Made by a program: the position numbers and the translations under genes | Notes under the pieces: generated by a model | What the model was told of the DNA's origin: nothing | The model's database searches: none | The model's input: the letters and a program-made list of their open reading frames with translations, nothing else | In this document: piece by piece, positions 9,658 to 64,000 of the stretch | How positions within the stretch are numbered: the stretch's first letter is position 1 | How the letters are laid out: each line of letters opens with the position of its first letter | Sequence record: PZ357121.2 | Length of the DNA stretch: 64,000 nucleotides | From: a phage | Direction: 5' to 3' (one strand)

Positions 9658-10791
<1,134 letters not shown>

Positions 10792-10836
10792 TCAGTTAGT
10801 TTTTTAAATTGTACCACAATCCTTGTGGCATGTAAA

Positions 10837-11247: not shown

Positions 11248-11255
11248 AATAAAGT

Positions 11256-11269
11256 GGGACCGAAGTCCC
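11256..11269 (-). other. intergenic stem-loop between nrdB and denA
   Basis: gggaccgaagtccc palindrome with a CGAA/UUCG loop, 13 nt from the denA ATG region. Confidence 0.4.
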
Positions 11270-11273
11270 GTCC

Positions 11274-12413: not shown

Positions 12414-12466
12414 TATATTTTCTCACTTAGTTTAACTCATCCATGAGTAAATTATAATCAAAAGTC

Positions 12467-13456: not shown

Positions 13457-14156
13457 TTAATTCTTCTACCTTTTTTCGAGATATTCCTAGAGCTTTAGAT
13501 GCTCGATGTATTGATTGATATTCTATACCGTTTATTTTTACAGCAATTAAGTTATGGGGTTTTAATCCCTTTGGATGAGGTTTACTGACGTATTCTTGAT
13601 TATCGTTTTCAGAGATATTATCAAGCTTTCGACACTTAAAGCCTTTATGTTGAGACCTTTTGCCTTTGCATACGGCCGACATTGCCGAAGCATTGAGTGA
13701 ATGTAGTTCGCAAAATTCTCTTAGGCCTTTATGGATTTCTTCATGACCGTCTGGGAAAGTAAATACCCAAGTTGTTTGAAGTTTTTCTCTATGCTCGTCA
13801 GTTACCGGAATACCTTTGTTCCAAGCTGGTTTGCCTTTATTATTTTCAGATACAGAAATAGCCAATTTTCTTCTAAGCCACCCATGGCGTTTATTGGTGT
13901 TCTTTCGTTCAATATTATCTTCAGAATAAACACACATCATATTAGCGGCAAATACCAATTTATAATTATCTGGATATATCTTTACTAATAATTGATGAGC
14001 TATGTAATGCTCTTCGGGTGTCAAATCTACCAGGTTTTCCTTTGTATCAGAACCACCAATACACAGAGGTATAATATGGTGTGATTCGGTATAGCAATCT
14101 AATTTTCTGTTCTTAGCTTTAGAAATAAGGTTATTGTAAATTTTAGAATAATCCAT
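13446..14156 (-). mobile_element. HNH homing endonuclease (MobE-like) inserted within nrdA
   Basis: 236 aa with HNH core (ESHHIIPLCIGGSDTKENLV...EEHYIAHQ) plus repeated NUMOD-like DNA-binding modules; ATG at 14156. Confidence 0.8.
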
Positions 14157-14201
14157 AACTTTTCCTCTTGTTATGGATTATTTATTAACGGTCTGTGTAC
14201 T

Positions 14202-39982: not shown

Positions 39983-42196
39983 TTATTTGGCCGCTTCCAC
40001 GGCCTTCATGAATTTAACGATTTGAGCGACCTGTTCTTTAGAAAGAGTACCACGTCGTCCCATGTATTCTGACACAATATGATAATTGGTTTCGAATTCA
40101 ATAACCATTTTATCATCATTATCGTAAGCATTATCTTTAAGCTTATCGAAAATTTTAGCACACAATTCTAACTTCCTGTTCAGGTCTCTGTTTTCAGCAC
40201 CTGCGAATCGATTCCATCCCCAACGATTATTTACTGTTGAGAGTTTTGCAAAATCTTTACTGATTTCTTTGTTTTTAGAGCTAAAATACTTACTAAGGAA
40301 GTTAAGCTCTTCATTACGAGTAATATGATTCAAATAAGGCTGTGCTCTACGACTTGGTGATACATACTCATCATAATCCACTTTATCGATTAGCGTAATA
40401 TAGTCATTAATTGATTTTTCGAACAAGCATTCTACTTCACCAAGTTTACGAACTTTCTTAGCAATCTGTGGACGAACTACAGTGAACTCTTTAATACCTG
40501 ACAAATCAGCAATACGAGTCAAGAAATTGGAGTCATAGTTCAACCAACCTTTATCTGCGTCAAGACATTCAGCGTTAGAACGATTACGAACTATAGCATA
40601 ACCTTGGATTTCATCTGCTTCACTTGCCGGAATAAAGAGGTCTTCTGATACCCAAACATCGTTTTCATTCTTAAAGAATCGATGAGCACTTGGCGATTTA
40701 GGACGAGGCTCATTAGTCCGTTTCCTGACTTCAATCCATGGCTTAACGATTTGTAAAAGCTCTGAAGTCTTGTACATGTTAATGTTGTCGCCATCAAAGA
40801 TAACTTTAAGGCGTTCCAGAAGTTTCATTGCATCTTCGTCTGTAGGGTCAACGAATAGTACGCTTTTACCAAAACCGCGTGGAACTTTACCAGTTAATTT
40901 AACCTCGTCTTTAGACATTTCAATTGAATTAAGAGCTCGCATTAATGGAACGCGTCCCTTAACGTCGTCAATAACGATTTCAACATTTTTAATGTTAATG
41001 CCAATCAGGCTGTTAATTGAAATGGTCGATGATGAGCTACCACTTTCACGAATACGACGAAGACGAGGGGATTCAACGATATCATATACGACGCCAAGAT
41101 TACACCACTCAGGCCCCATTTTAAAACGTTTGTACAACTCAGAATAAGTTAGTTGTTCTTTAGAGTATTTCAGTGATTCAATATTAGACCCGGCCTTTTC
41201 CATGTATTTACGAGCTGTATAGCCAAGAGAATCAATTTCACGGAACACATGACGTGGGTATTTACAATCAATCCATTTCTTAGAATCTTCAGCAAATAAT
41301 TTTGCATCGATTTCTGCAACACGTTTATGGATATTTGCTACTGTACGTTTATCAAATGACAATGCTTCACGAGACGGGGCGACATCTAGTTCACCCATAG
41401 GGAATTTAATATAAGCTGTAGTGCATCGCGTCATCATCCATGTTTGTTCTTTAATAACACTTCCGATTGGATATACAATACCACCGTAAACGGCCATGAT
41501 ATTACCACGTTCACCCCATGGAGCTTCCTTGGCCAAATATACATCGTCAAATTCAGGAAAGTATTTAATATCTTTAACACCACGAACTTCTGCAATATCA
41601 CCTAGAGGACGCATAACATATGCAATTTCAGATGCGAACTTTTCAAAATCTTCTGGGTTAACAGGCACAACTACTTCAACGCCAGTCCGGTCATCAGGAC
41701 CCATCTTATCTACGAAGGTCGGCTTAATCTGTGGACCACTGTCATCTTGATAAATTACATAACCACGAACTTCACCGTTGTGATAAGACGTAAGGTTAAA
41801 CGTATCGGTATATGCTAGTGGAGCTTTAGAGCCTAGTCCGAATCCACCAATGAAATCATTACTCGATGTTTTAGTTGAAGCAAAATATGAGTTATAGATT
41901 CCTGGCTCTTCGTCATTACCTCGAATGGTGAAATCACTCATACCAGGACCAAAGTCTCGAACTACAAAACGTGGGTCTAAACGACCTGGAGCCTGAACAA
42001 TAAACTTATCAGTGCAACCATTAAGAATTTGTCCATCGATACAGTTTGTGATTAATTCACGTACACAAGCCAATTCTTTGTTTGTATAAAGGTCATTAGA
42101 CAAAATCTTATAAACTTTACTATTGCCTTGAATAGTAAATGCTGTGCTCTTACCGCCTGAACCAATAATCGTTTCTTTAGCCGTTTCAATAATCAT
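39983..42196 (-). CDS. rIIA: rIIA
   Basis: 737 aa, N-terminus MIIETAKETIIGSGGKSTAF as in T4 rIIA. Confidence 0.9.
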   Translation of the reverse strand: MIIETAKETIIGSGGKSTAFTIQGNSKVYKILSNDLYTNKELACVRELITNCIDGQILNGCTDKFIVQAPGRLDPRFVVRDFGPGMSDFTIRGNDEEPGIYNSYFASTKTSSNDFIGGFGLGSKAPLAYTDTFNLTSYHNGEVRGYVIYQDDSGPQIKPTFVDKMGPDDRTGVEVVVPVNPEDFEKFASEIAYVMRPLGDIAEVRGVKDIKYFPEFDDVYLAKEAPWGERGNIMAVYGGIVYPIGSVIKEQTWMMTRCTTAYIKFPMGELDVAPSREALSFDKRTVANIHKRVAEIDAKLFAEDSKKWIDCKYPRHVFREIDSLGYTARKYMEKAGSNIESLKYSKEQLTYSELYKRFKMGPEWCNLGVVYDIVESPRLRRIRESGSSSSTISINSLIGINIKNVEIVIDDVKGRVPLMRALNSIEMSKDEVKLTGKVPRGFGKSVLFVDPTDEDAMKLLERLKVIFDGDNINMYKTSELLQIVKPWIEVRKRTNEPRPKSPSAHRFFKNENDVWVSEDLFIPASEADEIQGYAIVRNRSNAECLDADKGWLNYDSNFLTRIADLSGIKEFTVVRPQIAKKVRKLGEVECLFEKSINDYITLIDKVDYDEYVSPSRRAQPYLNHITRNEELNFLSKYFSSKNKEISKDFAKLSTVNNRWGWNRFAGAENRDLNRKLELCAKIFDKLKDNAYDNDDKMVIEFETNYHIVSEYMGRRGTLSKEQVAQIVKFMKAVEAAK

Positions 42197-42208: not shown

Positions 42209-42409
42209 TCACAAGTTACGTTTAAAAATTTCTGCTACTTCAAGAAGTTCTTCTTTAGTAGCTGTATCGGTTTGTATTTTATATCGAATTTCCTTAAAGC
42301 GTTCTTTAAAGGCTTCGGCTGATTCGATATCAAAAAATCTTTGGATAAGCCGGAATTCCCGGAGCACTGCTTTATCAAAAAGTTCCAAGTCCACGTTATA
42401 TGTTCTCAT
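42209..42409 (-). CDS. hypothetical protein (rIIA.1 position)
   Basis: 66-aa ORF immediately upstream of rIIA. Confidence 0.55.
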   Translation of the reverse strand: MRTYNVDLELFDKAVLREFRLIQRFFDIESAEAFKERFKEIRYKIQTDTATKEELLEVAEIFKRNL

Positions 42410-42501
42410 AATATTCTCTTCAGTAGATTCCTAGGGCACTATTACTAAAGACCATATAATCTATCATCTTATGTGTAATAGTGCCTCAGGCGATTCAGGA
42501 T

Positions 42502-43602
42502 TTACGCTGTGAAGATTTTATCCCACATCGCAACAACTGCATCTCGATTATACTTCTTCCATACTGCTTCAGCACGTTTAACTCGAGCTTCGTATGTGTC
42601 AGTGAATTCTAATACAGCTTTTGTGTAAAGCGCAACTACTTCTTTCTTAGGAGTAGAGGAATCAATTTCTACACGCACAGTATCTGGGTCGTATTCGAAT
42701 GTCGCATGAGGATAATCCTTAAAAACTAACTGGATTACAGGGACACCTTTAGAGATGGCTTCAATAGAACTATTCTCTACCGTACCTGTGTCAGGACACG
42801 TATTAATAAGTGCTTTAGCTGTTTTAAGACGTTCCATGATTTCACTGTGTGGAGCATCAATAATAACAGGATACTTAGCCGGTGGTGCCCATTTGCTTGG
42901 ACAGTATCCTGCACCATTTTCGCCTAGTGCTTTAATAGCTTCAAGAGCAACATCAGTACGACGCATTTTAGTGTCATAACGTTGTGCACTAATAATCAGA
43001 TCAGTCGCCGGGAGAACTTCTGGCTTTTCAGTCAAACAAATAACCGGATAATCTTCGGCTTCAAACAACGGATTTGCTCGCCAATAATCATAATCAATTT
43101 TGTCAGTCAGACCTGAAGTCATATAACAATATTTGCGTTCAAATTCACGGAAGGCTTTAGTAGGAGCATAACTCTTACCACCATTCTTATGAATTTGAAT
43201 AGTTTGGTCCCAAATTTGAACAATGCCACGAGATACCGGTTCAAATGGTGTTGCCATAAAATTCTTATGAACTTTAGAGAGACCTACGTCTTTAATTGCC
43301 TGAACGGTTAGTTTAGTCGGTTCCATAGTAACAACAAAATCGTATTCATGGATGCCGGCTAGTTCAACAATCTTACGAGCCATAGTATAACTCATACCTA
43401 GACTGAATTTAGTCAGATGACCAACAGGATGGTGTGTAACTTTCCAGTCACCAAACGTGTCATTATCAAAGCCGATATAATCAATATCAGCACCGATGGA
43501 CACAAGATATTTCAACACATTTAAATGTACTGCTTCAAGGCCACCTTGTACACGGTCAGGATTAAATGGGACTGCACGAGATGGGATAAACATAACTTTC
43601 AT
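42502..43602 (-). CDS. GT-B fold glycosyltransferase, candidate DNA sugar-modification enzyme
   Basis: 366 aa; C-terminal nucleotide-sugar-binding block resembling the GT4 E-x7-E motif (TGTVENSSIEAISKGVPVIQ); not a T4 alpha-gt or beta-gt homologue by eye; lies between rIIA.1 and gene 39. Confidence 0.65.
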   Translation of the reverse strand: MKVMFIPSRAVPFNPDRVQGGLEAVHLNVLKYLVSIGADIDYIGFDNDTFGDWKVTHHPVGHLTKFSLGMSYTMARKIVELAGIHEYDFVVTMEPTKLTVQAIKDVGLSKVHKNFMATPFEPVSRGIVQIWDQTIQIHKNGGKSYAPTKAFREFERKYCYMTSGLTDKIDYDYWRANPLFEAEDYPVICLTEKPEVLPATDLIISAQRYDTKMRRTDVALEAIKALGENGAGYCPSKWAPPAKYPVIIDAPHSEIMERLKTAKALINTCPDTGTVENSSIEAISKGVPVIQLVFKDYPHATFEYDPDTVRVEIDSSTPKKEVVALYTKAVLEFTDTYEARVKRAEAVWKKYNRDAVVAMWDKIFTA

Positions 43603-43644
43603 AATTAAGCCTTATTAAAATTAAAATGAAGCTCCCGAAGGAGC

Positions 43645-45462
43645 TTAGGACATCCATTCTTTACGAAGTTCTGAATCATCACCCAACAACATTTCAAAGA
43701 GTTCTTTCCAATTTTCAGGAAGTTTAACTACGTCGTACACAGGATTCTGAATCATTTCACGATATTCTGACTTTTCAAGGGAGCCCAATCCCTTGATGTA
43801 TCGAATACTATGCTTAGGCAGTGTATCTTTAACTTCTTCATACTCAGCTACAGTATAAAACCATTTTTGAGTTTTGCCAATTTGTGCAATAATTACAGGC
43901 GTTTTAACAAAGCGAATACGTCCTTGTTCGAACAATTCGGGCCAATTACTAAAGAAAGCAAGCAAAGCCGGATAAATACTTCCAAGACCATCATGATCGG
44001 CATCGGTCATAATTGCAATATTACGATAGTTCGTATTCTCTGCCTTTTCACCAAGAATAAGACCTGTGATAGCACAGATATCAAAGAGCTCTTTGTTCTT
44101 CATCATATCAGCATATGACATACCCCAGCTATTCATCACCTTACCACGTAATGGGAATCCACCGTGTAGTTCACGGTCACGAACATCAATGAGATAACCA
44201 ATTGCCGAATCACCTTCTGTTAAAAACAATGTCGTATCTGCATCTTTACCACATTGGTTAGCTTTAATATGCTTATGAACCTTAGCTTTAGTTGCCTTTT
44301 TAGCTGCTTTAGTTTCTGCAGCCTTTTCTGCTGCCAATTTACGAGCTAATGCTGCTTCAACAATAGGCATAATCAAGGCTTCGTTTTTAAGAAGTGCCTG
44401 AGCAATTTTCTTAGCATCTAATTGGATATGATTACGAATATCGCCATACGTTGACGTTAAACGTTCTTTAGTCTGAGAATCAAAACGCATGTTGCTCATG
44501 TCTCTAATAAACATCAACATTGTGAGACATTCTTTAACACGAGCTTTAGTGACTTCAATACCCTTATATTTCTTTTTAATGCCGGGCAAAAGATGTTCGC
44601 AGATATCATCCATTACACATTCAACATGATGACCACCATTTTTAGTATGGATGTTATTCACATAAGTTAAATGACGGAAGCCATCTGGTGATGTTGTGAA
44701 TGCTATAGAGACTTTATCATTTTCTTGAATGATGTTATCTTCGCCAAATTGTTTAGCAAATCGTTTAAAATTACCATCAACCTTTTTACCATTAAATGTG
44801 AACTTGATATCAGGATAAACGACTGCCAATGTTTGAAGACGGTCTAAAGTAATATCTAAATAAATTTGAGATAAATTATGCTCTTCAAATGAAGAGAAAT
44901 CAGGAGTGAAGATTACTTTAGTGCCTTTACCTTTAGATTTCTTAGAAGACCACGATTTGTTTTCCATTCCGTTTGAACAGTTAACAGTGATTTCATTTTC
45001 GCCATCTGACGTTATGCCTGTAAACAACGTAGAGAAGATATTAGTTAAACTACTCCCGACGCCGTTCATACCACCAGTCTTGCGTTCAGAGTCATCACCA
45101 AAGTTACCGCCGGCCTTTGGAATAGTCCAGGCTGCTACAGGCCCAGGAATTTGTTCACCTGTTTGGTCGGTAACTAAACCTTGAGGAATACCACGTCCGT
45201 TATCTTCCACCGAAACTTGATTATTTTTAATTTGCACATCAATTTTATTTGCAAACTTAAATGATGTACGAATAGCTTCATCAACCGAGTTGTCAATAAT
45301 CTCATCGATTAATTTAACCAGACCAGGAACATATTCAACTTGTTGATATTTACCAAACAAAAAACGCTCGTGGGCTTCTTTGGCCGAAGAACCAATATAC
45401 ATGCCACTACGTTTCTTAATATGTTCTACATCTGACAATACCTTAATTTCATTTTTAATCAT
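43645..45462 (-). CDS. 39: DNA topoisomerase II large subunit, fused gp39 + gp60 equivalent
   Basis: 605 aa continuous ORF with GyrB-like ATPase and Toprim regions; the length corresponds to T4 gp39 plus gp60 in one polypeptide. Confidence 0.9.
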   Translation of the reverse strand: MIKNEIKVLSDVEHIKKRSGMYIGSSAKEAHERFLFGKYQQVEYVPGLVKLIDEIIDNSVDEAIRTSFKFANKIDVQIKNNQVSVEDNGRGIPQGLVTDQTGEQIPGPVAAWTIPKAGGNFGDDSERKTGGMNGVGSSLTNIFSTLFTGITSDGENEITVNCSNGMENKSWSSKKSKGKGTKVIFTPDFSSFEEHNLSQIYLDITLDRLQTLAVVYPDIKFTFNGKKVDGNFKRFAKQFGEDNIIQENDKVSIAFTTSPDGFRHLTYVNNIHTKNGGHHVECVMDDICEHLLPGIKKKYKGIEVTKARVKECLTMLMFIRDMSNMRFDSQTKERLTSTYGDIRNHIQLDAKKIAQALLKNEALIMPIVEAALARKLAAEKAAETKAAKKATKAKVHKHIKANQCGKDADTTLFLTEGDSAIGYLIDVRDRELHGGFPLRGKVMNSWGMSYADMMKNKELFDICAITGLILGEKAENTNYRNIAIMTDADHDGLGSIYPALLAFFSNWPELFEQGRIRFVKTPVIIAQIGKTQKWFYTVAEYEEVKDTLPKHSIRYIKGLGSLEKSEYREMIQNPVYDVVKLPENWKELFEMLLGDDSELRKEWMS

Positions 45463-45505
45463 GTTGTCTCCTCGTTATGAAGGTATTCTATCATCCGAAA
45501 TCTAA

Positions 45506-45527
45506 AGCAAAAAGGGCCGAAGCCCTT
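45506..45527 (-). terminator. terminator-like hairpin upstream of gene 39
   Basis: aagggccgaagccctt followed on the minus strand by a short T-run; overlaps the stop of ORF 45526-45948. Confidence 0.45.
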
Positions 45528-45948
45528 ATTTAAATTTAATTTTCTGAAGTGCATCAATTGCAGCCAAACGCCCTTGTTCACTTTTAACTGTAATGACCAC
45601 ATCGCCTGATACGATCACCGAACCATCAACAAATTCTATAGAGCCTTTTTTGAAATCGACAGCTGTATCTGGTTCCGGAACTTCTTCAAAGAATTTAAAT
45701 TCTGCACCATAAAGCAGAATATCACCTTGCATACTAATGATTGTACGCCCAGGTCCATCGGTTTCAGCGGCAATCATTGAAACACCGTAACCAATCATCT
45801 CTTCTACAATAAAATCTCTTGATAATAAAACTGTATGCAGAGTAGTGTTAAGACGTTTACCAGTTGTATTAAGAATTCTCAAGAAATTATCTTCTTGACC
45901 TTTGATAATACGATATTTCTTACCAACTTCAAAACCTTTAAAAGCCAT
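45526..45948 (-). CDS. hypothetical protein
   Basis: 140-aa ORF. Confidence 0.5.
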   Translation of the reverse strand: MAFKGFEVGKKYRIIKGQEDNFLRILNTTGKRLNTTLHTVLLSRDFIVEEMIGYGVSMIAAETDGPGRTIISMQGDILLYGAEFKFFEEVPEPDTAVDFKKGSIEFVDGSVIVSGDVVITVKSEQGRLAAIDALQKIKFK

Positions 45949-45950
45949 AA

Positions 45951-46130
45951 TTAACCCTTCTTAAGTAAGTCGTAAAAACCACCGTTCACATGTTTAGGAG
46001 CAGAAACCCGACGAGTAGACAGACGATGACATTCAGGGCAAACATCGTTTTCTCGTTCAGAAATTCTTTTAATTTTTTCATATTCATGACCACAATCTTC
46101 AGATTGGCATTTATAGTCGTATAACGGCAT
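45951..46130 (-). CDS. zinc-ribbon protein (FmdB-like CxxC...CxxC), 59 aa, absent from the ORF track
   Basis: Minus ORF MPLYDYKCQSEDCGHEYEKIKRISERENDVCPECHRLSTRRVSAP...; two CxxC pairs about 22 residues apart. Confidence 0.5.
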   Translation of the reverse strand: MPLYDYKCQSEDCGHEYEKIKRISERENDVCPECHRLSTRRVSAPKHVNGGFYDLLKKG

Positions 46131-46132
46131 TA

Positions 46133-46561
46133 TTATTCCTTAAAATGTGCTTTCAACATTTGATACAAAGACCATGCCTGGTCATTATTTTCGATAGTAA
46201 TCGTCATCACAGGAAATTCAGACAATTCGCCAAGTTCACCAGAATCTTGCTCTTCAGACGCTTGATATGGATTTTCCACTTCATCAAAAAACTCTGCTTC
46301 GTTCGTGGAGAGCCAGATAAAGTTTTCATCAAGGATATCACCGCCTGTGGCGTATCCAACAGTGCCAGTAGATGTCACAATTTTAGTAGGACGTCCAAGA
46401 TGGTCAACATCTAATACTTTAAACGGTTCCATGCCAAGACGTCGTGCATAAATCCCATTATCAGTGTGGTCTTTAATAAACTCTTCTTGGGCACGTTTAT
46501 CTATAAATTGATACCATGAGTTAACGCGGAATTTATTAGCCATTAGTAAGTTTCCTTCCAA
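46133..46561 (-). CDS. hypothetical protein
   Basis: 142-aa ORF; likely true start at the ATG overlapping the upstream stop (46543). Confidence 0.5.
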
Positions 46562-46815
46562 TAAGTTGTACCATTTTCAGTGATTTCACGGAAGATACCA
46601 TAGATAGGCATTTTGTCACCGAGTTTTTCATAAACGTAAACCACTTCGGTGTAGCATAAAAATTCAGTCCAGTTTTTCTGTACAACAACTAAATCAGGAT
46701 TAAACAGAACATCTTCAAACTCATCGATGTTTGAATCAGTGGTTACGTTTTTAATGATTTGACGTTTCATAATATTCTCCTCTTGTTTTGATAGGTCTAT
46801 AGTATCATAGGCCAT
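46543..46815 (-). CDS. hypothetical protein
   Basis: 90-aa ORF downstream of an early promoter. Confidence 0.5.
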
Positions 46816-46827
46816 AGTTGTTGTACA

Positions 46828-47409
46828 TCATTTTAGCAAAATAAAATCAACTTGTTCTGCCAATGAACGTCTAAACATTAATTGACAACTTCCGAGGATG
46901 AAATCAGGTGCTTCATAGACCGCGATGTAGTATCCTTTAGCTTTCAAAAGTTCAACATCCACCTGGTCATCAAACCATGCATAAACCGCGTCAACACTTT
47001 CAAATCCAAAATAGAACCCTTGGGCCCAATCTTCACTCAATTCAAATGTGTGCTCAATTCTATAGTATCTTAAGATATTTTGTTCAAGGAGTTTGTCTTC
47101 ATTTACTGTAGGACGATTAGGGACATTATAGTTGTCACCGTGATGGTAGAAGTTACCTGAGATTATTCCATGTTTATCAAGGAACTCCCATGTTTCTTCA
47201 GAGTTGTCGGTGCCCGACCAACCGTATGGCGAACGAGGTTCTTTATTCCAAGAGGTTTCCCAAATTCTGACGGCTTTACCATCTTCGATAGCAATTCCTG
47301 GTAATGATTCACGTTGAGTACAAAAACTACGTTCTACGCGGTAAACTAACATATTATTCTCCTCTGGTTGATATGGGTATAATATCAAAACCAGAGGAGA
47401 AGTAAACAA
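46828..47409 (-). CDS. hypothetical protein
   Basis: Track ORF overlaps an early promoter; probable ATG at 47352 (MLVYRVERS...) with GAGGAG RBS gives about 174 aa. Confidence 0.5.
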   Translation of the reverse strand: MFTSPLVLILYPYQPEENNMLVYRVERSFCTQRESLPGIAIEDGKAVRIWETSWNKEPRSPYGWSGTDNSEETWEFLDKHGIISGNFYHHGDNYNVPNRPTVNEDKLLEQNILRYYRIEHTFELSEDWAQGFYFGFESVDAVYAWFDDQVDVELLKAKGYYIAVYEAPDFILGSCQLMFRRSLAEQVDFILLK

Positions 47410-47411
47410 CT

Positions 47412-47831
47412 TTATGCGAAAGCAGCTGGGGTATATTTTTTAATTTGGAATTCAGGAACTACCATGAACTGACCAGCGAAAACGATGTTATAAAGCTTAA
47501 CACCATCTTCTACCCAACGGTCGCTGATAAATCCGGCGATTTGCTTAGTTTTCCACGGTGTTCCATCAGTTGCCGCAGCAATAGTGAATTCATGGTCTTT
47601 TTCAACAGAAACTGATCTGCATAGTCCCCATTTGAACGCTTTTTCTTCTGGTTCAATGAACTGGCTTGAGACGTAGCCAATATTACCATTAGCATCACGA
47701 ACTTTAACTTGGTTACGACCAAAAACCGGATCACTCACAGAAATAACTTCAACCAACTTCCCGGCAACTTTAGAGCGAGAAGCAACAGATACATATACGT
47801 AATCACCTGTAGAGAGATTTACAATATTCAT
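47412..47831 (-). CDS. MotB-like protein, paralogue of the adjacent gene
   Basis: 139 aa; shares motifs with ORF 47841-48338 (VSxASRSKxAGKLVEV, KLYNIVFxGxFxVV). Confidence 0.55.
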   Translation of the reverse strand: MNIVNLSTGDYVYVSVASRSKVAGKLVEVISVSDPVFGRNQVKVRDANGNIGYVSSQFIEPEEKAFKWGLCRSVSVEKDHEFTIAAATDGTPWKTKQIAGFISDRWVEDGVKLYNIVFAGQFMVVPEFQIKKYTPAAFA

Positions 47832-47840
47832 AATAATTCC

Positions 47841-48338
47841 TTAAGCTTTATGAGGAGACACATAGCGAGTGATTTCAGATTCTTTAACAACTCGGAAGTC
47901 ACCTAAGAATACGATATTGTATAACTTTTCACCATCTTCAACCCATTGGTCACTAATGAAGCCACACATAGTATCAGTTTTGCTTGGATAACCGTATTCG
48001 TCGATGTAATCAAATTCTTTATCGGTTATAAATTCAACGCCTTTGCAAAGAGCCCATTTGAACTGTGTAGTAGGCTCAACGATATCGCTTGAAGCAAAGT
48101 GTGCAGGTGCAACTTCTTCGCTTGAAGCAAATTGGACTCGTATATGTTTTTCCAGGAATTTAGGACTTACGTAAGCATACTGGGCATCTTGTCCGCCAAA
48201 ACTGGGCATGATTCGAACTTTAACTTCTTTAATACGTCCCATGCCATTTGTGCGAAGTCCGACAACTTCAACCAGACGACCTGCGGCTTTAGACCGGGAT
48301 GCAGTTGATACACGCTTAATTTCACCAATAGTAATCAT
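47841..48338 (-). CDS. motB: MotB (modifier of transcription)
   Basis: 165 aa (T4 MotB 162 aa), N-terminus MITIGEIKRVS...; directly upstream of dexA as in T4. Confidence 0.65.
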   Translation of the reverse strand: MITIGEIKRVSTASRSKAAGRLVEVVGLRTNGMGRIKEVKVRIMPSFGGQDAQYAYVSPKFLEKHIRVQFASSEEVAPAHFASSDIVEPTTQFKWALCKGVEFITDKEFDYIDEYGYPSKTDTMCGFISDQWVEDGEKLYNIVFLGDFRVVKESEITRYVSPHKA

Positions 48339-48404
48339 AATTTTTTCTCTCTTTGTTTAAGTTGAATTCATTATACTCCATCCATCCTTGGATGTAAACT
48401 GATT

Positions 48405-49082
48405 TTATCGCTGTTTTACACTTAACGGGTCAGGATTCTCAGGGACATCTTCAAGGCCAAGCGCATAACGCTGAGCATATTTTAACATCAAAATATCTTT
48501 AGCACAATCATGAATACTATCATGGGCAACGAATCCTTTTAGCGTACCCATCGGTAATGGACACATACTTAATCCTCGTGTCAACGAGTAAGCTTCGATT
48601 GCCGTACGAATATCGCGTTGAGCCCAGAATTTAACCGGTTCTAATTTATCAGTATCAATCTCTGGTTCAAGAACACCTTCATCACGATAGAGGTCACGAA
48701 TCAAATCGACCAAGATCGGGAAGTCAAAGCTCATACCACGGCACCACATCTGTGATTTCCATTGGTCAACTTTATTAGCTCGGCAATAGTCTAAAAAGAT
48801 TTTAATGCCTTCAAGCGTAGTGACGTCGTCTTCAGACGGAGCCAAGTTTTTACGTGCTTCAGCCGATTGTTCTTTCCACCATTTCATAGTGGATTTAGCG
48901 AAAACTCGCTTCCCTTTCTGAGAAGCTAAATTAAATTTAATTCGCTTACCTCGTTGAACAAGTTCTTCAAATGATTCAACAACTTCAGGGTCGGAATTAT
49001 ATGCAATAACCGCAAGGTCAATAACAGCCGCTTTTGATGTATTGCCGAATGTTTCAAAATCTATAATAACATCAGTGCTCAT
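48405..49082 (-). CDS. dexA: exonuclease A
   Basis: 225 aa (T4 DexA 227 aa), DnaQ-like exonuclease in the T4 position. Confidence 0.8.
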   Translation of the reverse strand: MSTDVIIDFETFGNTSKAAVIDLAVIAYNSDPEVVESFEELVQRGKRIKFNLASQKGKRVFAKSTMKWWKEQSAEARKNLAPSEDDVTTLEGIKIFLDYCRANKVDQWKSQMWCRGMSFDFPILVDLIRDLYRDEGVLEPEIDTDKLEPVKFWAQRDIRTAIEAYSLTRGLSMCPLPMGTLKGFVAHDSIHDCAKDILMLKYAQRYALGLEDVPENPDPLSVKQR

Positions 49083-49091
49083 AATTTTCTC

Positions 49092-50405
49092 TCAAATAAA
49101 ATGGACGTCAAACCGACCACGAGTTGTGCCGACATACAATAACTGTTTAGCTAATTCTGAATCGGCGTAATGGATACACGGTGTATAAACAAAGGCCGTG
49201 TCAACAGACATACCCTGGGCCTTATGGAAGGTCGATACTGGTAGTGCCTTCACCTTAGTGAACATACGTTTAGCATCCCAGAATTCGCTCCATGGGGCTT
49301 TACCACCTTTATTCCAAAATTTGTATGTTTCTGCGGTCTTAGCCAAAAACAAATTGAATTTATAAAGCTCTTCTTCAGAAGAAATAACCTTTATATCTTC
49401 GCGGATGTATTCTTCATCATCCCCATATGTTTCTACTGTAAGATTCCAGTATCGTATCATATATTCGCCTGAAACACCACGTGCTTTAACGAATGTAGAC
49501 GTTTCTACAGCATCTCGAATACGAACGAATTGACCGTTATTGAAAAGCATTTCGGTCATATTTTTACCATCTAGCTTATATGTCTTAGTAAATGGCTCTT
49601 GTAGAACAATGACTTCGTCTTTAATAAATGGTTTTTCTGTTTCAAGAAGTTTTCGGCGAATAATTGAATTTAACTTGTTCACCGACTTATTTGTGAATGC
49701 CATCATTCGATTTTCGAAAAGGTCTTCAGGAGTTTTAACGACGTTAAAATAGTTCATCATATACGATTTAAGGTCTGTATATCCGTGAACACCATGTCCA
49801 TCAACTACTTTATCATAAATCCATTTGCCATTACGAATATCAGTCGCAACATCAATAATCGGTGCATTGCTACGTTTAACTTCTGTAAGGTTGCATTGCA
49901 CGAAGTCTTTGTGGGTGAAGAAAGGACTTAGATACGCAGTTGATTCACCTGGGTCTACCGGACGAATCTGACATCGGTCGCCGATTCCAATTACTGTACA
50001 CCATTTAGGGATACTAGCTAACATTATTTTAAACAGAGAACGGTCGCACATTGACGCTTCATCAAATAACAGTACACGGCACAAGGCTAAGTCAGGAACC
50101 TTTTTCTGTTCAAACAATACGTTTTCTTCGTATGTAGTTGGGTTGATTTTAAGAATGCTATGAATAGTCGATGCTTCTTGACCCGCAAGTTTGCTTAGAA
50201 CCTTTTTAGCAGCATGTGTAGGGGCTGCTAAAATAATACCTGATTCTCCGGAAGAAATAAGGGCTTCAACGATGAATCTAGTAAGGGTTGTTTTACCTGT
50301 ACCAGCAGGCCCATTAATAGTTACGTGATGTTTCTTTTCTTTAATAGCGTTCATAACAACGTTGAAGGCGTTTTTCTGACCTTCAGTCAAATCATCAAAT
50401 GTCAT
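49092..50405 (-). CDS. dda: Dda DNA helicase (SF1B)
   Basis: 437 aa, Walker A GPAGTGKTT, high similarity to T4 Dda over full length. Confidence 0.95.
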   Translation of the reverse strand: MTFDDLTEGQKNAFNVVMNAIKEKKHHVTINGPAGTGKTTLTRFIVEALISSGESGIILAAPTHAAKKVLSKLAGQEASTIHSILKINPTTYEENVLFEQKKVPDLALCRVLLFDEASMCDRSLFKIMLASIPKWCTVIGIGDRCQIRPVDPGESTAYLSPFFTHKDFVQCNLTEVKRSNAPIIDVATDIRNGKWIYDKVVDGHGVHGYTDLKSYMMNYFNVVKTPEDLFENRMMAFTNKSVNKLNSIIRRKLLETEKPFIKDEVIVLQEPFTKTYKLDGKNMTEMLFNNGQFVRIRDAVETSTFVKARGVSGEYMIRYWNLTVETYGDDEEYIREDIKVISSEEELYKFNLFLAKTAETYKFWNKGGKAPWSEFWDAKRMFTKVKALPVSTFHKAQGMSVDTAFVYTPCIHYADSELAKQLLYVGTTRGRFDVHFI

Positions 50406-50713
50406 CGTAAAGTCCCTGCAATTGGAATACTAACAATACGGCCTGTATCCAGGATTCGTTGATACAATTTTTGCGTCTCCGCATCTAGTTTAATGTGTTT
50501 CATTTCAAGCTTATTAAACCAGAACTTACGCGGAGTTTCGACCATTCTTAGAACTCCCATTTTTAAATCTGTTTTATACTGTGTTTTCAAAGTATCGAAA
50601 ACTTTATCTGCAATATCCTTTCTAAAAAATACTGCAGGACGATGCTCATCAAGTGGAACCGGGACAGTAAATCCTTCCATATCTCGATAAACTATTGCAT
50701 ATACATAAACCAT
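50402..50713 (-). CDS. hypothetical protein (dda.1 position)
   Basis: 103-aa ORF with 4-nt overlap onto dda. Confidence 0.5.
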   Translation of the reverse strand: MVYVYAIVYRDMEGFTVPVPLDEHRPAVFFRKDIADKVFDTLKTQYKTDLKMGVLRMVETPRKFWFNKLEMKHIKLDAETQKLYQRILDTGRIVSIPIAGTLR

Positions 50714-50715
50714 AA

Positions 50716-51462
50716 TTAACCTTTAATCAGTTGGAATAATGATGCGCTAAGTGGTAAGCCACGTTTCAATTTTAATTTACCAATGAAACCAATCTTTTCA
50801 AAACGTTGCAGACCTTGGATAACTTTATCATATGTATCGAAAAGCGATTCAGCGTCAGTTAATTTAGTTTTAGTTTTCCAGTCAGAGCCTTTAAGAAGAA
50901 CGTTGAGTTTAGTAAGTTCATGGCCTTCTGCTTGATGTGAGCCATTAATGCGTGCTTTCAAAGCAACAATTCTAAGTTTAGATTCGTTAGATAAAGGTTG
51001 ATTTTTCATCATGTTCGCCATATGCTTAACACGATTTTCACGTTTTGCTCGGATTTTTAAAATAGTGCCATAAACCTTTTTAATTTGGGCCCATTTCTTC
51101 TCGTCGAGATTAAGTTTCTCTACTTTACGGACAGAAGGATTAGCGATACGTCTTGCAATGGCATCACGTTTCTCAATAAGTTCTTCTAATGTTAAATCAG
51201 AACGAGCCGTGTTATATTTTTTCTTAACTGGGATAACATTACCTTTAATGTAGCCGATATCGTTATTAAAACGTTCTAAGGATAATTTCTCACCTTCAAC
51301 AGAGTTATTGAAAGATTCACCTGAGTAAGCGCAGACCTTTTGATCAAGAATGTTTTTAAGGTAATTAAAGTCTAAGTTAAAATCCTTAGAGCGTCTCTTC
51401 GCAGAAGCTCTGGTGTGGTCAAGACGACGATTGATTTTGTTAATTTTATTATTTGATAACAT
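50716..51462 (-). CDS. srd: Srd-like protein, called by position and size
   Basis: 248-aa basic protein between dda.1 and mod, matching the T4 srd locus. Confidence 0.5.
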   Translation of the reverse strand: MLSNNKINKINRRLDHTRASAKRRSKDFNLDFNYLKNILDQKVCAYSGESFNNSVEGEKLSLERFNNDIGYIKGNVIPVKKKYNTARSDLTLEELIEKRDAIARRIANPSVRKVEKLNLDEKKWAQIKKVYGTILKIRAKRENRVKHMANMMKNQPLSNESKLRIVALKARINGSHQAEGHELTKLNVLLKGSDWKTKTKLTDAESLFDTYDKVIQGLQRFEKIGFIGKLKLKRGLPLSASLFQLIKG

Positions 51463-51615
51463 AATATTTTCCTCTGTCTTACGGACGTTAAGGTCATTTA
51501 GCTGATAAGCTTATAATATCATGCCCTCAGGTAGTGTACACTCTTTTTTCATAAAATGCTTTAATTTTTTATGTGTTATAATGGTTCTGAATTCCATCCG
51601 GTTATTCCAATCCAG

Positions 51616-52224
51616 TCAGTAACCAACAATAGACAGATTCCAGATTGTATAACGTCCATCTTGAATAATAGAATCTACACGCAGTGTAGTCCCTATAGGG
51701 AGCATAAATTCACATTCGTCAGATATAAGTCTAGCATTAGACCGTCTTGTCGCTTCAGGGAAAGCTCCATTGAACTCACAAGATGGCGCAGCCAGAATCA
51801 TGTTAAGCATATGTTCACGGAAGTTGAAAGCAAATGGTGCATCTTTGATGCAGAACATAGTAAATGTTCCGTAAAAATTATACGAAGCAAAGTTACGTGC
51901 TACACCGAACACTGGGCTGAAGCTCATTACTCTGTCAAATTTAATAATACTACCAATGCCTTTATCATCGAGTGTGGCCATAGTTTTCTTAGAGATTCCA
52001 CGATACATTGTCTCAGGAACAGAAGACGTCCAATTTCTACGAACGATTGAACTTAACTCCTGTTGAATACAGTCTGGCTTGTTTTCCATACATTGCCATA
52101 GTACACTTTGTTCAATGTCGCTGAATTGACTATCAATTTCGTACTGCAATACATCTTGATATTCGGGGTTTTGAGCACGACGAACCATTTCTTCAATTTC
52201 ACACTCATTATACGGCATAAACAT
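51616..52224 (-). CDS. ADP-ribosyltransferase ModA/ModB family
   Basis: 202 aa with R-S-E-type elements (YRGIS, SFSP, ECEF) in the T4 modA/modB position; only one copy seen here. Confidence 0.6.
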   Translation of the reverse strand: MFMPYNECEIEEMVRRAQNPEYQDVLQYEIDSQFSDIEQSVLWQCMENKPDCIQQELSSIVRRNWTSSVPETMYRGISKKTMATLDDKGIGSIIKFDRVMSFSPVFGVARNFASYNFYGTFTMFCIKDAPFAFNFREHMLNMILAAPSCEFNGAFPEATRRSNARLISDECEFMLPIGTTLRVDSIIQDGRYTIWNLSIVGY

Positions 52225-52571
52225 TTAGGTTTCTCCTCTGGTTGATAAAAGTATAGTATCATCGTCGGTAGAGTTTGTACACTAAAAATTCAATATTTTC
52301 AAATGAATGATTTTGTTAGGTATTCGCGTTCTTGAAGTTCAGATTGACATGTCATGATAGACCTCCATTTAAAGATAAGCCTATCATAACACGAGAGGAG
52401 GGAATGTAAACTACTTTTTAAGCTTTCCTACTAAAGGTCCTGATGGACCTGGTTGTTCTAACATGAATAATGATGCTTTAAAAAGCAATGCCAACCCTTT
52501 CACCATTCGATACCATGCCTCAAAGTCTTTTTCCTTGATTTCTAGTAAGAATTTCTCTTTAAATTTCTCTT

Positions 52572-52760
52572 TCATTTCCAAGGACTCCATGGTGGAGGGT
52601 CGTCATAATAAGAGGCAAGGTCTTTCAGGGCTTCAACAGGTAAACTAAAGCCGTGACGTTGTATAATACTATCTAGTTCATCAACAAGTTCACTACGATG
52701 CACTTTAGGAGCCTCAACTTCGGGCTCATCAAACATACTCATCAAGTCCATATTATTCAC
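52572..52760 (-). CDS. hypothetical protein
   Basis: 62-aa acidic ORF. Confidence 0.4.
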   Translation of the reverse strand: MNNMDLMSMFDEPEVEAPKVHRSELVDELDSIIQRHGFSLPVEALKDLASYYDDPPPWSPWK

Positions 52761-53217
52761 CGAGATAAAAACTAGCAGGTTCAGAGAATGTTTCTAGTGC
52801 TACACCTTTTGTCTTAAAAAATTTCCAAATAGCCCGTTGCAAGTGGATTAAATCTGCTAATGATGTAATAAAGTATTTTTTGGCAAAATACTTATGGTCT
52901 CGCTTTTCAAACAAGTCTAAACGCTTTTCAGGATTCACATAAACTGCATTTTCCGTGGATTCATAACCTAAGTCCTTTATGCCTTCTTCAAGACTAAACG
53001 GAGAATTTTTAGAATGAGTAATAGCTCCAACTCGCTCTACACGAATTTTGTAACCTTTAGGAATCTGCAATTTACAGAATTCTTCTACGATATATTGCGG
53101 ATTATTTAGACTTTTGTTAATGAGAATAGCTATTTCTAGTGGAGTCTTATCTTCTACTGGTATATGTTTAAACGACTTGGCTTCAAGCAAATACATTTTA
53201 AATAACATAGCATCCAT
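52753..53217 (-). CDS. hypothetical protein (mrh-region)
   Basis: 154-aa ORF. Confidence 0.5.
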   Translation of the reverse strand: MDAMLFKMYLLEAKSFKHIPVEDKTPLEIAILINKSLNNPQYIVEEFCKLQIPKGYKIRVERVGAITHSKNSPFSLEEGIKDLGYESTENAVYVNPEKRLDLFEKRDHKYFAKKYFITSLADLIHLQRAIWKFFKTKGVALETFSEPASFYLGE

Positions 53218-53392
53218 TATAATTTCCTCGATGGTTCACCCATATAAAGTTTTACAATACGTTCGCCTTCATCTTCGATGAGCTTCTCTTCGTGTTTCTG
53301 GAATTCTTTAGCCATATTCTCTTCAAGAACATCCAGCCAATCTTCTGGTTCGACTCCATCATTCCAGCTTTTAAACCATTTTACTATTTTGT

Positions 53393-53716
53393 TCATTCAC
53401 AGCTTCCTGAGCTTGAACCACAATCAGAATAACTTGACCCAGAATCACCAGGCCAAGACGATACATATGAATGATTATAATCGGAAGAGCTTGAAGCATT
53501 AACCTGTTTTGTTTTTGGACGAACAACTTCTTCCATCATTCCGTCACCGTTATATTCCCAACTTTTTTCATGTGTATCAGGAATAGGCATCATACCTTCG
53601 CCTGGATTAACAGCAAACAACTTCTTCAGCATCGTAAGCATTAATTGTTCCTCGAACAAAACGAACACCACCATCATCCCAACGAATTTCGGCATTAAAT
53701 TTGACGTCTTCACCAT
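53393..53716 (-). CDS. hypothetical Ser-rich protein
   Basis: ORF with a C-terminal S/G/C-rich tail; track start probably over-extended (internal ATG near 53641). Confidence 0.4.
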   Translation of the reverse strand: MVKTSNLMPKFVGMMVVFVLFEEQLMLTMLKKLFAVNPGEGMMPIPDTHEKSWEYNGDGMMEEVVRPKTKQVNASSSSDYNHSYVSSWPGDSGSSYSDCGSSSGSCE

Positions 53717-53834
53717 CCATCATGAATGAGTGTACGACTACATCATCATAGTATCCAAGACCGTATTTCAACGAAACTTCTTGAGCAATCAAAGCCCCTA
53801 ATGTGTTATTAGGTTTAATCCAACGATTTAACAT
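53607..53834 (-). CDS. hypothetical protein
   Basis: Track ORF 53607-53903 begins with TTG; ATG at 53834 (MLNRWIKP...) with GAGGAG RBS gives 75 aa. Confidence 0.45.
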   Translation of the reverse strand: MLNRWIKPNNTLGALIAQEVSLKYGLGYYDDVVVHSFMMDGEDVKFNAEIRWDDGGVRFVRGTINAYDAEEVVCC

Positions 53835-53901
53835 ATTGTTCTCCTCTTGAGTAAGTAAGAATATCTTAACACAGTTTTTAGTGGTTGTAAACTGTAGAAA
53901 C

Positions 53902-53932
53902 AAAAAAAAAAAGGAATCCCGAAGGATTCCTT
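53902..53932 (-). terminator. intrinsic terminator downstream of soc
   Basis: aaggaatcccgaaggattcctt followed on the minus strand by a run of about 10 T. Confidence 0.65.
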
Positions 53933-53939
53933 AAATTAT

Positions 53940-54176
53940 TTAACCACTTACTGGTGTAGGGGTAAACATTGCAGCGTTCTTAGTTTTCCAGGCAGCCGCA
54001 TCAGAAACTACAGTAGAATAAGCTGCCTTTTCTGATGGAAAGATTTGGTAATGAGAATCTGCAATCCGATGTTCGTTTGAATAAATCTCAAACGGCACAG
54101 AAACTTCCATACCTTTAACTTCTTTGCCTTCACCAGCAGGATGCGTAAAGGTTTTGATGTTTACATAACCACCCAT
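53940..54176 (-). CDS. soc: small outer capsid protein Soc
   Basis: 78 aa, similar to T4 Soc (GYVNIKTF..., HYQIFPSEKAAYSTV). Confidence 0.85.
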   Translation of the reverse strand: MGGYVNIKTFTHPAGEGKEVKGMEVSVPFEIYSNEHRIADSHYQIFPSEKAAYSTVVSDAAAWKTKNAAMFTPTPVSG

Positions 54177-54207
54177 AATTAACTCCTTTGTTGTTTAATT
54201 ACAGGTG

Positions 54208-54215
54208 TATTTATA
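54208..54215 (-). promoter_or_regulatory. T4 late promoter (TATAAATA) for soc
   Basis: TATAAATA on minus about 30 nt upstream of the soc ATG. Confidence 0.5.
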
Positions 54216-54221
54216 ACTTAA

Positions 54222-54743
54222 TCAGTAACCATTATCCTGGCGTTCAAAGTTGTGTTGGTTTTTCAAGTAGTAAAGTTTAAAGATTTCTTCAGCGGAAAGA
54301 CCCAGACCTTGGAACATGTTCAGGACAAAGTGCAGAATATCAATCATCTCGAATTTAATTTCAAGCTGGTCTTCAGGAGACAGTTCATCGATACGACGAT
54401 TTCGATATTCAGCATGTTGAGCTTTCCACGGCTTCCATACAGAGCTAGCGGCTTTTTCACCATTGCTCATACCACCAAGTGAAGTCAACAGTTCACGGAA
54501 TTCATCATCAATATAATCTTTCTGATTACGCAGCCAATCAACAACATCACCAGCAGTGGCTAATTCATCGGGATGTTTGTTATGTTCAGGCTTGTCATTT
54601 GCCAGACGAACCTGTAAAGATTTCTGCATATCAAGCATTACCTGCAGAGGGTCTTTATCTTCGTGAATCAGAGCATTAAAATAAGCTTCTTCTGCTTTAT
54701 CAACACCAGAAATAAGTTGTGAACATTCGTTAAAGTGCGCCAT
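54222..54743 (-). CDS. 56: dCTPase / dUTPase gp56
   Basis: ATG at 54743 (MAHFNE... as in T4 gp56) with AAGGAAAAA RBS; the track ORF extends 5 codons further to 54758. Confidence 0.9.
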   Translation of the reverse strand: MAHFNECSQLISGVDKAEEAYFNALIHEDKDPLQVMLDMQKSLQVRLANDKPEHNKHPDELATAGDVVDWLRNQKDYIDDEFRELLTSLGGMSNGEKAASSVWKPWKAQHAEYRNRRIDELSPEDQLEIKFEMIDILHFVLNMFQGLGLSAEEIFKLYYLKNQHNFERQDNGY

Positions 54744-62820: not shown

Positions 62821-63369
62821 TTAACGAGCCCATTTGATAATTTCTGTAATCAAATTATTACGTTCGCTTGCATTAAATCCTATAACTTTGTTAGCACCAT
62901 CATGATTAAGTAATTGATACGTTTGGATTTCGTTATGAATTGCAAACTCTTCAAAATACGAAATGACTGTATTAAACCTGAATGAAGACAAAGTAATAAG
63001 GTCGTCTTCAAAACTTTCAGTCATTTCGTTACGTGTTAAAATAATTGTGAACACATCATGGTTTTGGCAAAGACGAACATAATCCTGTTCATAAACGTCA
63101 AGAACCGAGTCCGCATCTTGTCGAATACGTCCATAAACCCAGTTACTAATATATCCACGGTCTAACAGATAAATCTTAGTAGGGTCTAAATAATTCAACA
63201 TCGTTTCGAAACAGCCAACTTCATTTCGAGACTTAACATCGAAACGTCCATCAACTGTTCGTTTAGGGAAATCAATCTTTACATATCTTTCACTAATTTC
63301 CATTATGTCATTAATGAAAGTTGTTTTACCAGCATTATCCGGGCCATCTACTAAAATAATTTTAGCCAT
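62821..63369 (-). CDS. P-loop kinase-like protein (unknown substrate)
   Basis: 182 aa with Walker A at the N-terminus (IILVDGPDNAGKTTF) and a downstream LLDRGY block reminiscent of small nucleotide/sugar kinases; sits where T4 carries beta-gt. Confidence 0.55.
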   Translation of the reverse strand: MAKIILVDGPDNAGKTTFINDIMEISERYVKIDFPKRTVDGRFDVKSRNEVGCFETMLNYLDPTKIYLLDRGYISNWVYGRIRQDADSVLDVYEQDYVRLCQNHDVFTIILTRNEMTESFEDDLITLSSFRFNTVISYFEEFAIHNEIQTYQLLNHDGANKVIGFNASERNNLITEIIKWAR

Positions 63370-63370: not shown

Positions 63371-64000
63371 TTATTCCTCGATTACGACATCTTCATATTT
63401 AGGTATATTATACGGCGAAGAAATTAAAGCATTAAAGTAGATGAACTCGCCAAGACCTGGATGGAATACTTCTTCAGGATTTTCGAAGTATTGAATCTTC
63501 GGACGTCCTTTAAGAATTTGATAGTACTCAGTTTTAGTTGGTTTAAAAATTCGAATCAGCGCTTCTTCAGGATACTTATTTCTGTCGAAGCTATTATTTG
63601 GATCGGTTATATAAAGCGGTTGACCTAATTGAATTGCACATTCAACCACTTGTTCAAAACGATAGCACGGGTCACTAATTCGAAATGGATGAAAAATACC
63701 ATCTAGATGAATAGGAGCCAAATCACCTACAAGACGCTGCATGATGGAAGGACGTATAACTTTCTGCGTTACGATAATCTTATTACCATCTGCACCTGCG
63801 TTAACCAGCACTTCTTTTTGACGTTCATTCAACACAGTAGTTTGAAGTGAACGATTAACAGACAACATGTCGGTTTTTAAGAATTCGTCAATATAAAAAC
63901 GTGGTTTATTAGGGTCTGCAGTGATATTGAAATTGAATTCTACGTCAAAATTGCCGTCATATCCAGTGATATCTGTGATTAGAAAATCACAATCATAATA
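63371..64000 (-). CDS. partial CDS of unknown function, 5' end beyond the window
   Basis: The reading frame stays open upstream of the track ATG (63868) to the window edge, so at least 209 codons; not recognisably beta-gt or dCMP hydroxymethylase by eye. Confidence 0.45.
   Translation of the reverse strand, partial: YYDCDFLITDITGYDGNFDVEFNFNITADPNKPRFYIDEFLKTDMLSVNRSLQTTVLNERQKEVLVNAGADGNKIIVTQKVIRPSIMQRLVGDLAPIHLDGIFHPFRISDPCYRFEQVVECAIQLGQPLYITDPNNSFDRNKYPEEALIRIFKPTKTEYYQILKGRPKIQYFENPEEVFHPGLGEFIYFNALISSPYNIPKYEDVVIEE

Follow-up and report, generated by a model that had tools for sequence, protein, structure and literature searches.

A candidate second DNA arabinosyltransferase of the RB69 type between rIIA.1 and the fused topoisomerase gene of a Mosigvirus

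What is the function of the 366-residue protein encoded between rIIA.1 and the topoisomerase gene of this phage, and, if it transfers a sugar, what is its acceptor? An original prediction, made from the letters of the 64,000-nucleotide stretch of phage DNA examined here (PZ357121.2; the window), described it as an unassigned GT-B glycosyltransferase and proposed that it modifies DNA, for example as an arabinosyltransferase acting on 5-hydroxymethylcytosine (hmC). With arabinofuranosyl (Araf)-5-hydroxycytosine in its DNA, Mosigvirus is protected against restriction enzymes, CRISPR-Cas, and DNA glycosylases, and the length of the sugar chain alters which defences still detect the DNA. The modification also affects the host range in phage therapy and leaves genomes that are hard to cut and to nanopore-sequence. 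It is useful to know which gene sets the chain length.

The transferase gene and its surroundings

The gene and the features adjoining it are located as follows.

39983..42196, minus strand: rIIA (ORF; synteny with the RB69 and T4 annotation)
42209..42409, minus strand: rIIA.1, downstream of the transferase gene (Pfam T4_RIIA1, E 3.7e-30)
42502..43602, minus strand: transferase gene, encoding a 366-aa GT-B glycosyltransferase orthologous to RB69 ORF003c/gp3 (ORF with ATG start, homology, and fold)
43610..43613, minus strand: AAGG, a Shine-Dalgarno-like motif located 7 nt ahead of the transferase ATG (read from the sequence)
43629..43646, minus strand: hairpin with a 7-bp stem and a TTCG loop, AAGCTCC-TTCG-GGAGCTT (terminator-like scan and inverted-repeat search)
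43645..45462, minus strand: gene 60+39, fused topoisomerase II large subunit of 605 aa (Pfam DNA_gyraseB, HATPase_c, and TOPRIM_C; RB69 '60plus39')
45485..45509, minus strand: TGCTTTAGATTTCGGATGATAGAAT, a MotA-box-like site resembling a middle promoter, immediately upstream of gene 60+39 (pattern search)

The 366-aa reading frame claimed for this position was found to be real, running from an ATG start on the minus strand and filling the slot between rIIA.1 and gene 60+39. The same gene order was present in the RB69 annotation, and rIIB follows rIIA downstream. Gene 39 is a single fused ORF here, as had been described and as in RB69. The difference from T4 was also described correctly, since the T4 order is rIIA.1, 60, 60.1, mobA, and 39, with no gene intervening between rIIA.1 and 60. 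The GC content of the transferase gene was 39–40%, which is similar to that of its surroundings.

A tblastn search of phage records gave 98.9% identity over 366/366 aa between the window protein and RB69 ORF003c (gp3, NP_861693.1). This is the same protein that the original prediction had mentioned as a candidate transferase at this junction in RB69. The two sequences differ at four residues, none of which is invariant in the family. The protein also matched PHROG 8302 over positions 1–366/366 with an E-value of 1.3e-221. Homologues were detected in 212 of 50,697 phage records by tblastn with the transferase. They comprise approximately 156 records of Escherichia/Shigella (Mosigvirus-type) phages carrying a full-length homologue of 95–99.6% identity, 55 records of Acinetobacter phages carrying a full-length homologue of approximately 42% identity at two matching places each, and one 'Tegunavirus' record. 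Such full-length homologues in both the Mosigvirus-type and the Acinetobacter phages indicate that the ORF is no chance reading frame. The surrounding 14 kb was approximately 97% identical to the Mosigvirus genomes PNJ-6, DCP548, and ST0, which, together with the 98.9% identity to ORF003c, identified the window as part of an RB69-like Mosigvirus. The exact sequence of the window protein was absent from the protein collection searched.

Gene 60+39 lies upstream of the transferase gene, and the two are separated by a 42-bp spacer, in which neither a MotA-box-like nor a sigma-70-like site was found. The site at 45485..45509 is the probable source of a transcript running into the transferase gene, which would then be co-transcribed with gene 60+39; the MotA-box-like pattern was matched 15 times across the window, where 3.7 matches would be expected. 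The hairpin overlaps the stop codon of gene 60+39 and is located 26 nt ahead of the transferase start, where it may act as a terminator or as an RNA-stability element. By analogy with T4, in which alpha-gt and beta-gt are early genes, the transferase gene would be expressed along with the topoisomerase gene ahead of replication.

Fold, invariant residues, and annotation

A profile search of PDB sequences matched the entries 9IQZ and 9IR0 with an E-value of 2e-196. Their PDB titles, retrieved via Foldseek, are 'phage HY126 glycosyltransferase' (9IQZ) and the same protein 'with UDP' (9IR0), and both were released on 2025-07-16. Six differences between the HY126 chain and the window protein were counted in the alignment (approximately 98% identity), and none of them falls on a family-invariant residue. 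The HY126 structures are reportedly those of He et al. (2026, Nat Chem Biol). The next Foldseek matches were PimA, tetrahydrobiopterin glucosyltransferase, BshA, WaaG, PglA, and sucrose-phosphate synthase, all with a probability of 1.00 at 10–17% identity. An AlphaFold model of the transferase reached a pLDDT of 63.5, with a shallow alignment behind it and residues 108–187 poorly modelled. Judged from the Foldseek matches and the solved structure of the HY126 protein, the transferase is assigned a GT-B fold of GT4-type architecture, which bears out the fold that had been claimed for it. UDP binding is predicted for the window protein from the title of the HY126 complex. The original prediction had called for profile and structure searches, and those performed here returned the GT4-type folds but no Pfam glycosyltransferase family. 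Pairwise similarity to the T4 enzymes was also not detected (BLASTP E 3.5 for alpha-gt and E 3.1 for beta-gt), in agreement with the earlier view by eye that the protein is a homologue of neither.

Residues G20, G142, R208, R214, N267, T268, T274, E281, and the stretch G286-V-P-V were invariant across the gp3 family down to 20% identity. The sequence block that had been quoted as a nucleotide-sugar-binding site, TGTVENSSIEAISKGVPVIQ, corresponds to residues 272–291. When the EX7E motif of GT4 enzymes was checked, E281 was found to be invariant and to be followed by A-x-x-x-G-V-P, as in these enzymes. The upstream glutamate is E276, which precedes E281 by five residues versus the canonical eight and is missing in the most distant member, P0015. 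Thomas et al. 2018 aligned G20, R207, and E281 of ORF003c with residues of T4 alpha-gt that bind phosphate and ribose (PMC6024577). R208 is the invariant arginine in our alignment, and the R207 of that study is the residue adjacent to it.

The description of this protein as unassigned holds for the databases. No Pfam family was obtained for it at E-values up to 1, with Glycos_transf_1 and Glyco_trans_4 both unmatched, and an NCBIfam scan also gave no family. PHROG 8302 is labelled 'unknown function', and the GenBank label is mostly 'hypothetical protein'; the names 'DNA alpha-glucosyltransferase' and 'phosphatidylinositol mannosyltransferase' also appear in public records. The description does not hold for the literature, in which the protein has been a candidate arabinosyltransferase since 2018, when Thomas et al. 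detected arabinose in RB69 DNA and put forward ORF003c as the RB69 arabinosyltransferase by using custom HMMs and HHpred (PMC6024577). The transferase is already known in the sense that an RB69-type arabinosyltransferase was proposed earlier and that a near-identical protein is structurally solved. The practical value of the assignment made here is mainly the correction of annotation.

The proposed place of the enzyme in DNA arabinosylation

The modified base of Mosigvirus DNA is 5-hydroxycytosine, on which the sugar is attached via an ether oxygen at C5 (PMC13326640, PMC13390438). The idea of an arabinosyl-type DNA sugar transferase was right, and the protein is the RB69 ORF003c orthologue, but the base named in the original prediction, hmC, was not. 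Lee et al. 2026 described a thymidylate-synthase homologue that makes 5-hydroxy-dCMP, and reported that RB69 DNA contains both mono- and di-arabinosyl 5-hydroxy-dC, the di form being beta-D-Araf-(1-3)-alpha-D-Araf-5-hydroxy-dC (PMC13326640). In their proposal, the first sugar is added by gp46:47, and gp3 is listed as 'beta-arabinosyltransferase 2' (PMC13326640). The DNA of Bas46 and Bas47 is also doubly arabinosylated (PMC12923530). The following genes of this pathway were located in the window.

54222..54743, minus strand: gene 56 dCTPase, which clears dCTP and thereby restricts the cytosine entering DNA to the modified form (97% identical to RB69 gp56; Pfam dUTPase_2)
62821..63369, minus strand: nucleotide kinase of the arabinosylation cluster, homologue of RB69 ORF045c (ORF; length and position as for ORF045c)
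63371..64000, minus strand: proposed first arabinosyltransferase (RB69 gp46:47), of which the C-terminal 209 aa are present before the window end cuts it (reading frame and homologues)

The gene 56 dCTPase was thus present in the window, as had been claimed. The name nucleotide kinase is that given to RB69 ORF045c (PMC13326640, Table 1). The frame at 63371..64000 runs unbroken across the position at which RB69 ORF047c and ORF046c join. The transferase gene therefore co-occurs in the window with the kinase, a part of the first transferase, and the dCTPase, the remaining cluster being located beyond the window end, and it lies approximately 20 kb from the arabinosylation cluster.

A pathway scheme was drawn from the literature on RB69, NP, Bas46/47, and HY126, while orthology, fold class, genomic context, and phyletic pattern were established in the present analysis. 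In this scheme, dCTP would be removed by the dCTPase, and the thymidylate-synthase homologue would generate 5-hydroxy-dCMP, which takes the place of C in the DNA. The first transferase, gp46:47, would join alpha-D-arabinofuranose to the 5-oxygen, and the gp3-type enzyme would move a second arabinofuranose from UDP-Araf to O3 of the first sugar, so that beta-D-Araf-(1-3)-alpha-D-Araf-5-hydroxy-dC would be the end product. The extended sugar chain may constitute an extra steric shield against DNA-targeting defences. The transferase named Aat by Mahler et al. is presumably the Bas46 counterpart of this protein, judging from an indirect citation. As far as the work of Mahler et al. 2025 is related in PMC13216743, deletion of the Aat arabinosyltransferase in the Mosigvirus Bas46 led to sensitivity to a plasmid-borne defence.

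The distribution of the two transferases was compared among the phage records. Homologues of the first transferase, for which its C-terminal 209 aa served as the query, were detected in 343 records, including those of Klebsiella, Enterobacter, Serratia, Yersinia, Proteus, Pectobacterium, and Shewanella phages. The gp3 family was limited to the Mosigvirus types, the Acinetobacter phages, and the one 'Tegunavirus' record. Within the Mosigvirus and Acinetobacter groups, the counts of the gp3 family were close to those of the first transferase, nearly one-to-one. Since the groups match, the comparison of 343 with 212 records leaves at least 130 that carry the first transferase without gp3. The two proteins are unrelated in sequence (E 1.3). 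The number of arabinoses per cytosine and the number of gp3-family copies were as follows.

Thanatos: one arabinose per cytosine; no gp3-family copy (Shewanella phages are absent from the gp3 matches and are among the first-transferase matches)
RB69, NP, and Bas46/47: two arabinoses per cytosine; one gp3-family copy
DLP3: three arabinoses per cytosine; two gp3-family copies (Maestro-type phages likewise have two)

Thanatos was reported to be mono-arabinosylated and to possess a single arabinosyltransferase that is syntenic to gp46:47 (PMC13326640). In Maestro, the gene order was isomerase, bifunctional kinase/uridylyltransferase, phosphatase, thymidylate-synthase homologue, first transferase, kinase, 078, and 077, with the roles assigned by order and size against the DLP3 cluster, as most of the record labels are 'hypothetical'. 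The gp3-family paralogues of this phage are hence located directly after the kinase, within the arabinosylation cluster. These phyletic and synteny results agree with, and support, a second-sugar role for gp3.

The order of action originally proposed in 2018 was different, in that the gp3-type protein was regarded as the first, base-proximal transferase, which places arabinose straight onto the hydroxylated cytosine. That proposal drew on a remote HMM similarity to T4 alpha-gt (PMC6024577), and proteins of the gp46:47 type are without shown in-vitro activity on 5-hydroxycytosine (5hoC) DNA (PMC13326640). We consider it unlikely, because the records with a gp46:47-type gene and without the gp3 family include the mono-arabinosylated Thanatos, and because the gp3-family paralogues of DLP3 use DNA that is already arabinosylated (PMC13326640). 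Furthermore, it is the gp46:47-type gene, not gp3, that adjoins the 5-hydroxy-dCMP synthase gene in both the Mosigvirus and the Acinetobacter phages.

The DLP3 enzymes were characterized in vitro, where gp76 and gp77 jointly extended the arabinosylated cytosines of RB69 DNA by a third Araf taken from UDP-Araf, giving a three-sugar chain in which the third sugar is 1-5 linked (PMC13326640). They were active as a pair only, and no single transferase was active on 5hoC DNA (PMC13326640). This pairwise action would also fit a role in which the window protein is required for di-arabinosylation without being its sole catalyst, namely through a complex with the first transferase in which its presence is obligatory. 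Such a role appears very unlikely, as the invariant nucleotide-binding residues and the UDP complex of the HY126 protein point to a working active site, and as the single family member of Mosigvirus has no paralogue to pair with. The Mosigvirus protein was 41–43% identical to both Maestro paralogues, which were 56% identical to each other, and a neighbour-joining tree placed the Acinetobacter duplication later than the divergence of this lineage from that of Mosigvirus. The Mosigvirus gene is therefore co-orthologous to both paralogues and is not specifically 'gp77-like', so that sequence does not tell whether its product corresponds to the 'second' or to the 'third' transferase in particular.

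Taken as a whole, we assign a probability of roughly 0.8 to the reading that the gene encodes the Mosigvirus gp3 orthologue, a UDP-sugar-dependent GT-B enzyme that acts on phage DNA and adds the second arabinose. The transferase most likely lengthens the chain, with the bond between base and sugar made by the unrelated gp46:47, and the second addition would be catalysed by the window protein itself.

The breadth of the family was examined with a family profile, which was run in full with HMMER against 1.84 billion representative proteins and matched 11 clusters (50% identity level), of which just one was marginal (E 5e-4); a word-indexed homologue search gave 5 clusters. Bacterial relatives were not found among these representatives, and with 11 clusters only, a sequence bridge to bacterial glycosyltransferases could not be built. 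This bears on whether the target of the transferase might be something other than DNA, for instance a phage protein or an envelope lipid or LPS of the host, in which case the association with DNA arabinosylation would be coincidental. Apart from the phage protein itself, the closest folds do belong to glycosyltransferases that act on lipids, LPS, or small molecules (PimA, WaaG, and BshA), and the gene stands at a distance from the arabinosylation cluster, but the identity of those matches reflects only the shared GT-B/GT4 architecture. A non-DNA target is highly improbable for so tiny a family, which is restricted to phage groups possessing the arabinosylation cluster in nearly matching numbers, and whose Acinetobacter phage homologues are encoded within that cluster and are active on DNA in vitro (PMC13326640).

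With DNA retained as the acceptor, a broader and more tentative idea is that the gp3 family is a very small, phage-only GT-B clade specialised in extending sugar chains on DNA, which we regard as possible but doubtful. If it were true, the Mosigvirus gene, placed approximately 20 kb away from the core genes of the pathway, could represent an 'upgrade module', either relocated or acquired separately, by which mono-arabinosylated DNA becomes di-arabinosylated. The metagenomic members P0007–P0010 (35–39% identity), of which P0008 and P0009 had no close match among sequenced phages, would then point to undescribed phages whose DNA is poly-glycosylated.

Comparison with known systems

The closest counterparts are RB69 ORF003c and the HY126 glycosyltransferase, which occupy the same position between rIIA.1 and 60+39 and have the same accompanying genes as the window. 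DLP3 gp76 and gp77 (Maestro 077 and 078) belong to the same family, with 41–43% identity over the full length and the same invariant residues. They are, however, two paralogues inside the arabinosylation cluster, whereas Mosigvirus possesses a single gene at the rIIA/topoisomerase junction.

The T4 enzymes alpha-gt and beta-gt resemble the window protein in being phage GT-B glycosyltransferases that use a UDP-sugar, act on a modified cytosine in DNA, and are encoded in the T4-like early/middle gene region. The likeness of alpha-gt to ORF003c is found only at the profile (HHpred) level (Thomas et al. 2018, PMC6024577). Both T4 enzymes place glucose on 5-hydroxymethylcytosine, in contrast to the arabinofuranose on 5-hydroxycytosine described in the literature on RB69 and NP, and their acceptor is a hydroxyl of the base, whereas that proposed for gp3 is a hydroxyl of the sugar. 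The retaining GT-B enzymes of the GT4 type (PimA, BshA, WaaG, and sucrose-phosphate synthase) share 10–17% identity with the window protein, for which DNA is the proposed acceptor, and, unlike it, they have the first glutamate of EX7E at the canonical spacing. In T2 and T6, a beta-alpha-glucosyltransferase adds a second glucose to form gentiobiosyl-hmC. This enzyme is a functional analogue of the transferase proposed here, as it likewise acts after a first transferase and elongates the sugar on a cytosine already glycosylated, though with another sugar, base, and linkage.

Distribution and labelling of the gp3 family

The gp3 family, to which the proposed second arabinosyltransferase of the window belongs, was searched for in the phage collection, where a match was also detected in one record whose organism name starts with "Tegunavirus", apparently at <60% identity. 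Yersinia phage TG1 carries the first transferase and was not among the gp3-family matches in this collection. A HMMER search gave four divergent members of metagenomic origin (P0007–P0010), which share 35–39% identity with the window protein. For two of them, P0008 and P0009, a close match was not found among sequenced phage isolates, which suggests that phages with extended DNA glycosylation exist that are as yet unsampled. Orthologues are labelled inconsistently across the public records of HX01 (NC_018855.1), 308Ecol101PP (OR062945.1), and the Acinetobacter phages Lazarus, Kimel, and DLP1-3, where they appear as "DNA alpha-glucosyltransferase", [quoted passage not shown], or "hypothetical protein". 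The first transferase of HX01 is labelled "RNA polymerase binding protein".

Transferase loci of the window, JK45, and RB69

The stop codon of the transferase gene is separated from the start of rIIA.1 by a 92-bp spacer, most of which is taken up by the following repeat:

42430-42445 and 42475-42490: arms of a 16-nt inverted repeat, 88% complementary, with 29 nt between them

In Shigella phage JK45 (MK962757.1, locus 1501-3104), a complete transferase gene is followed by the same 92-bp spacer and then by a second annotated ORF, which repeats the last 136 codons of the transferase gene. The repeat arose either by partial tandem duplication or as an artefact of assembly. The JK45 record is filed under Tequatrovirus, and its region 1501-3104 is Mosigvirus-like.

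When the window (43602-54222) was compared with the RB69 locus (3620-15451), the coordinate offset was ~1.2 kb smaller at gene 56 than at the transferase gene, indicating that the window phage lacks some of the small RB69 ORFs located there or carries shorter versions of them. At 63371-64000 (minus strand), the frame of the first arabinosyltransferase runs continuously across the point where the RB69 record is split into ORF047c and ORF046c. The split has been attributed in the literature to a sequencing error, and the continuous frame agrees with this.

Middle-promoter-like sites and hairpins

The MotA-box-like middle-promoter pattern TGCTTNA-N11-13-TANNNT occurs at 15 sites in the whole window against 3.7 expected, and one of these lies within the first transferase gene at its 3′ end and is located upstream of the gene for the kinase. 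Examples are as follows:

63407-63431, minus strand: MotA-box-like site
53474-53498, minus strand: MotA-box-like site
24359-24384, minus strand: MotA-box-like site

Directly upstream of the MotA-box-like site that precedes gene 60+39, a second hairpin was located:

45512-45527: GC-rich hairpin, AAGGGC-TTCG-GCCCTT, in which TTCG forms the loop

This hairpin is identical in type to the one preceding the transferase gene.
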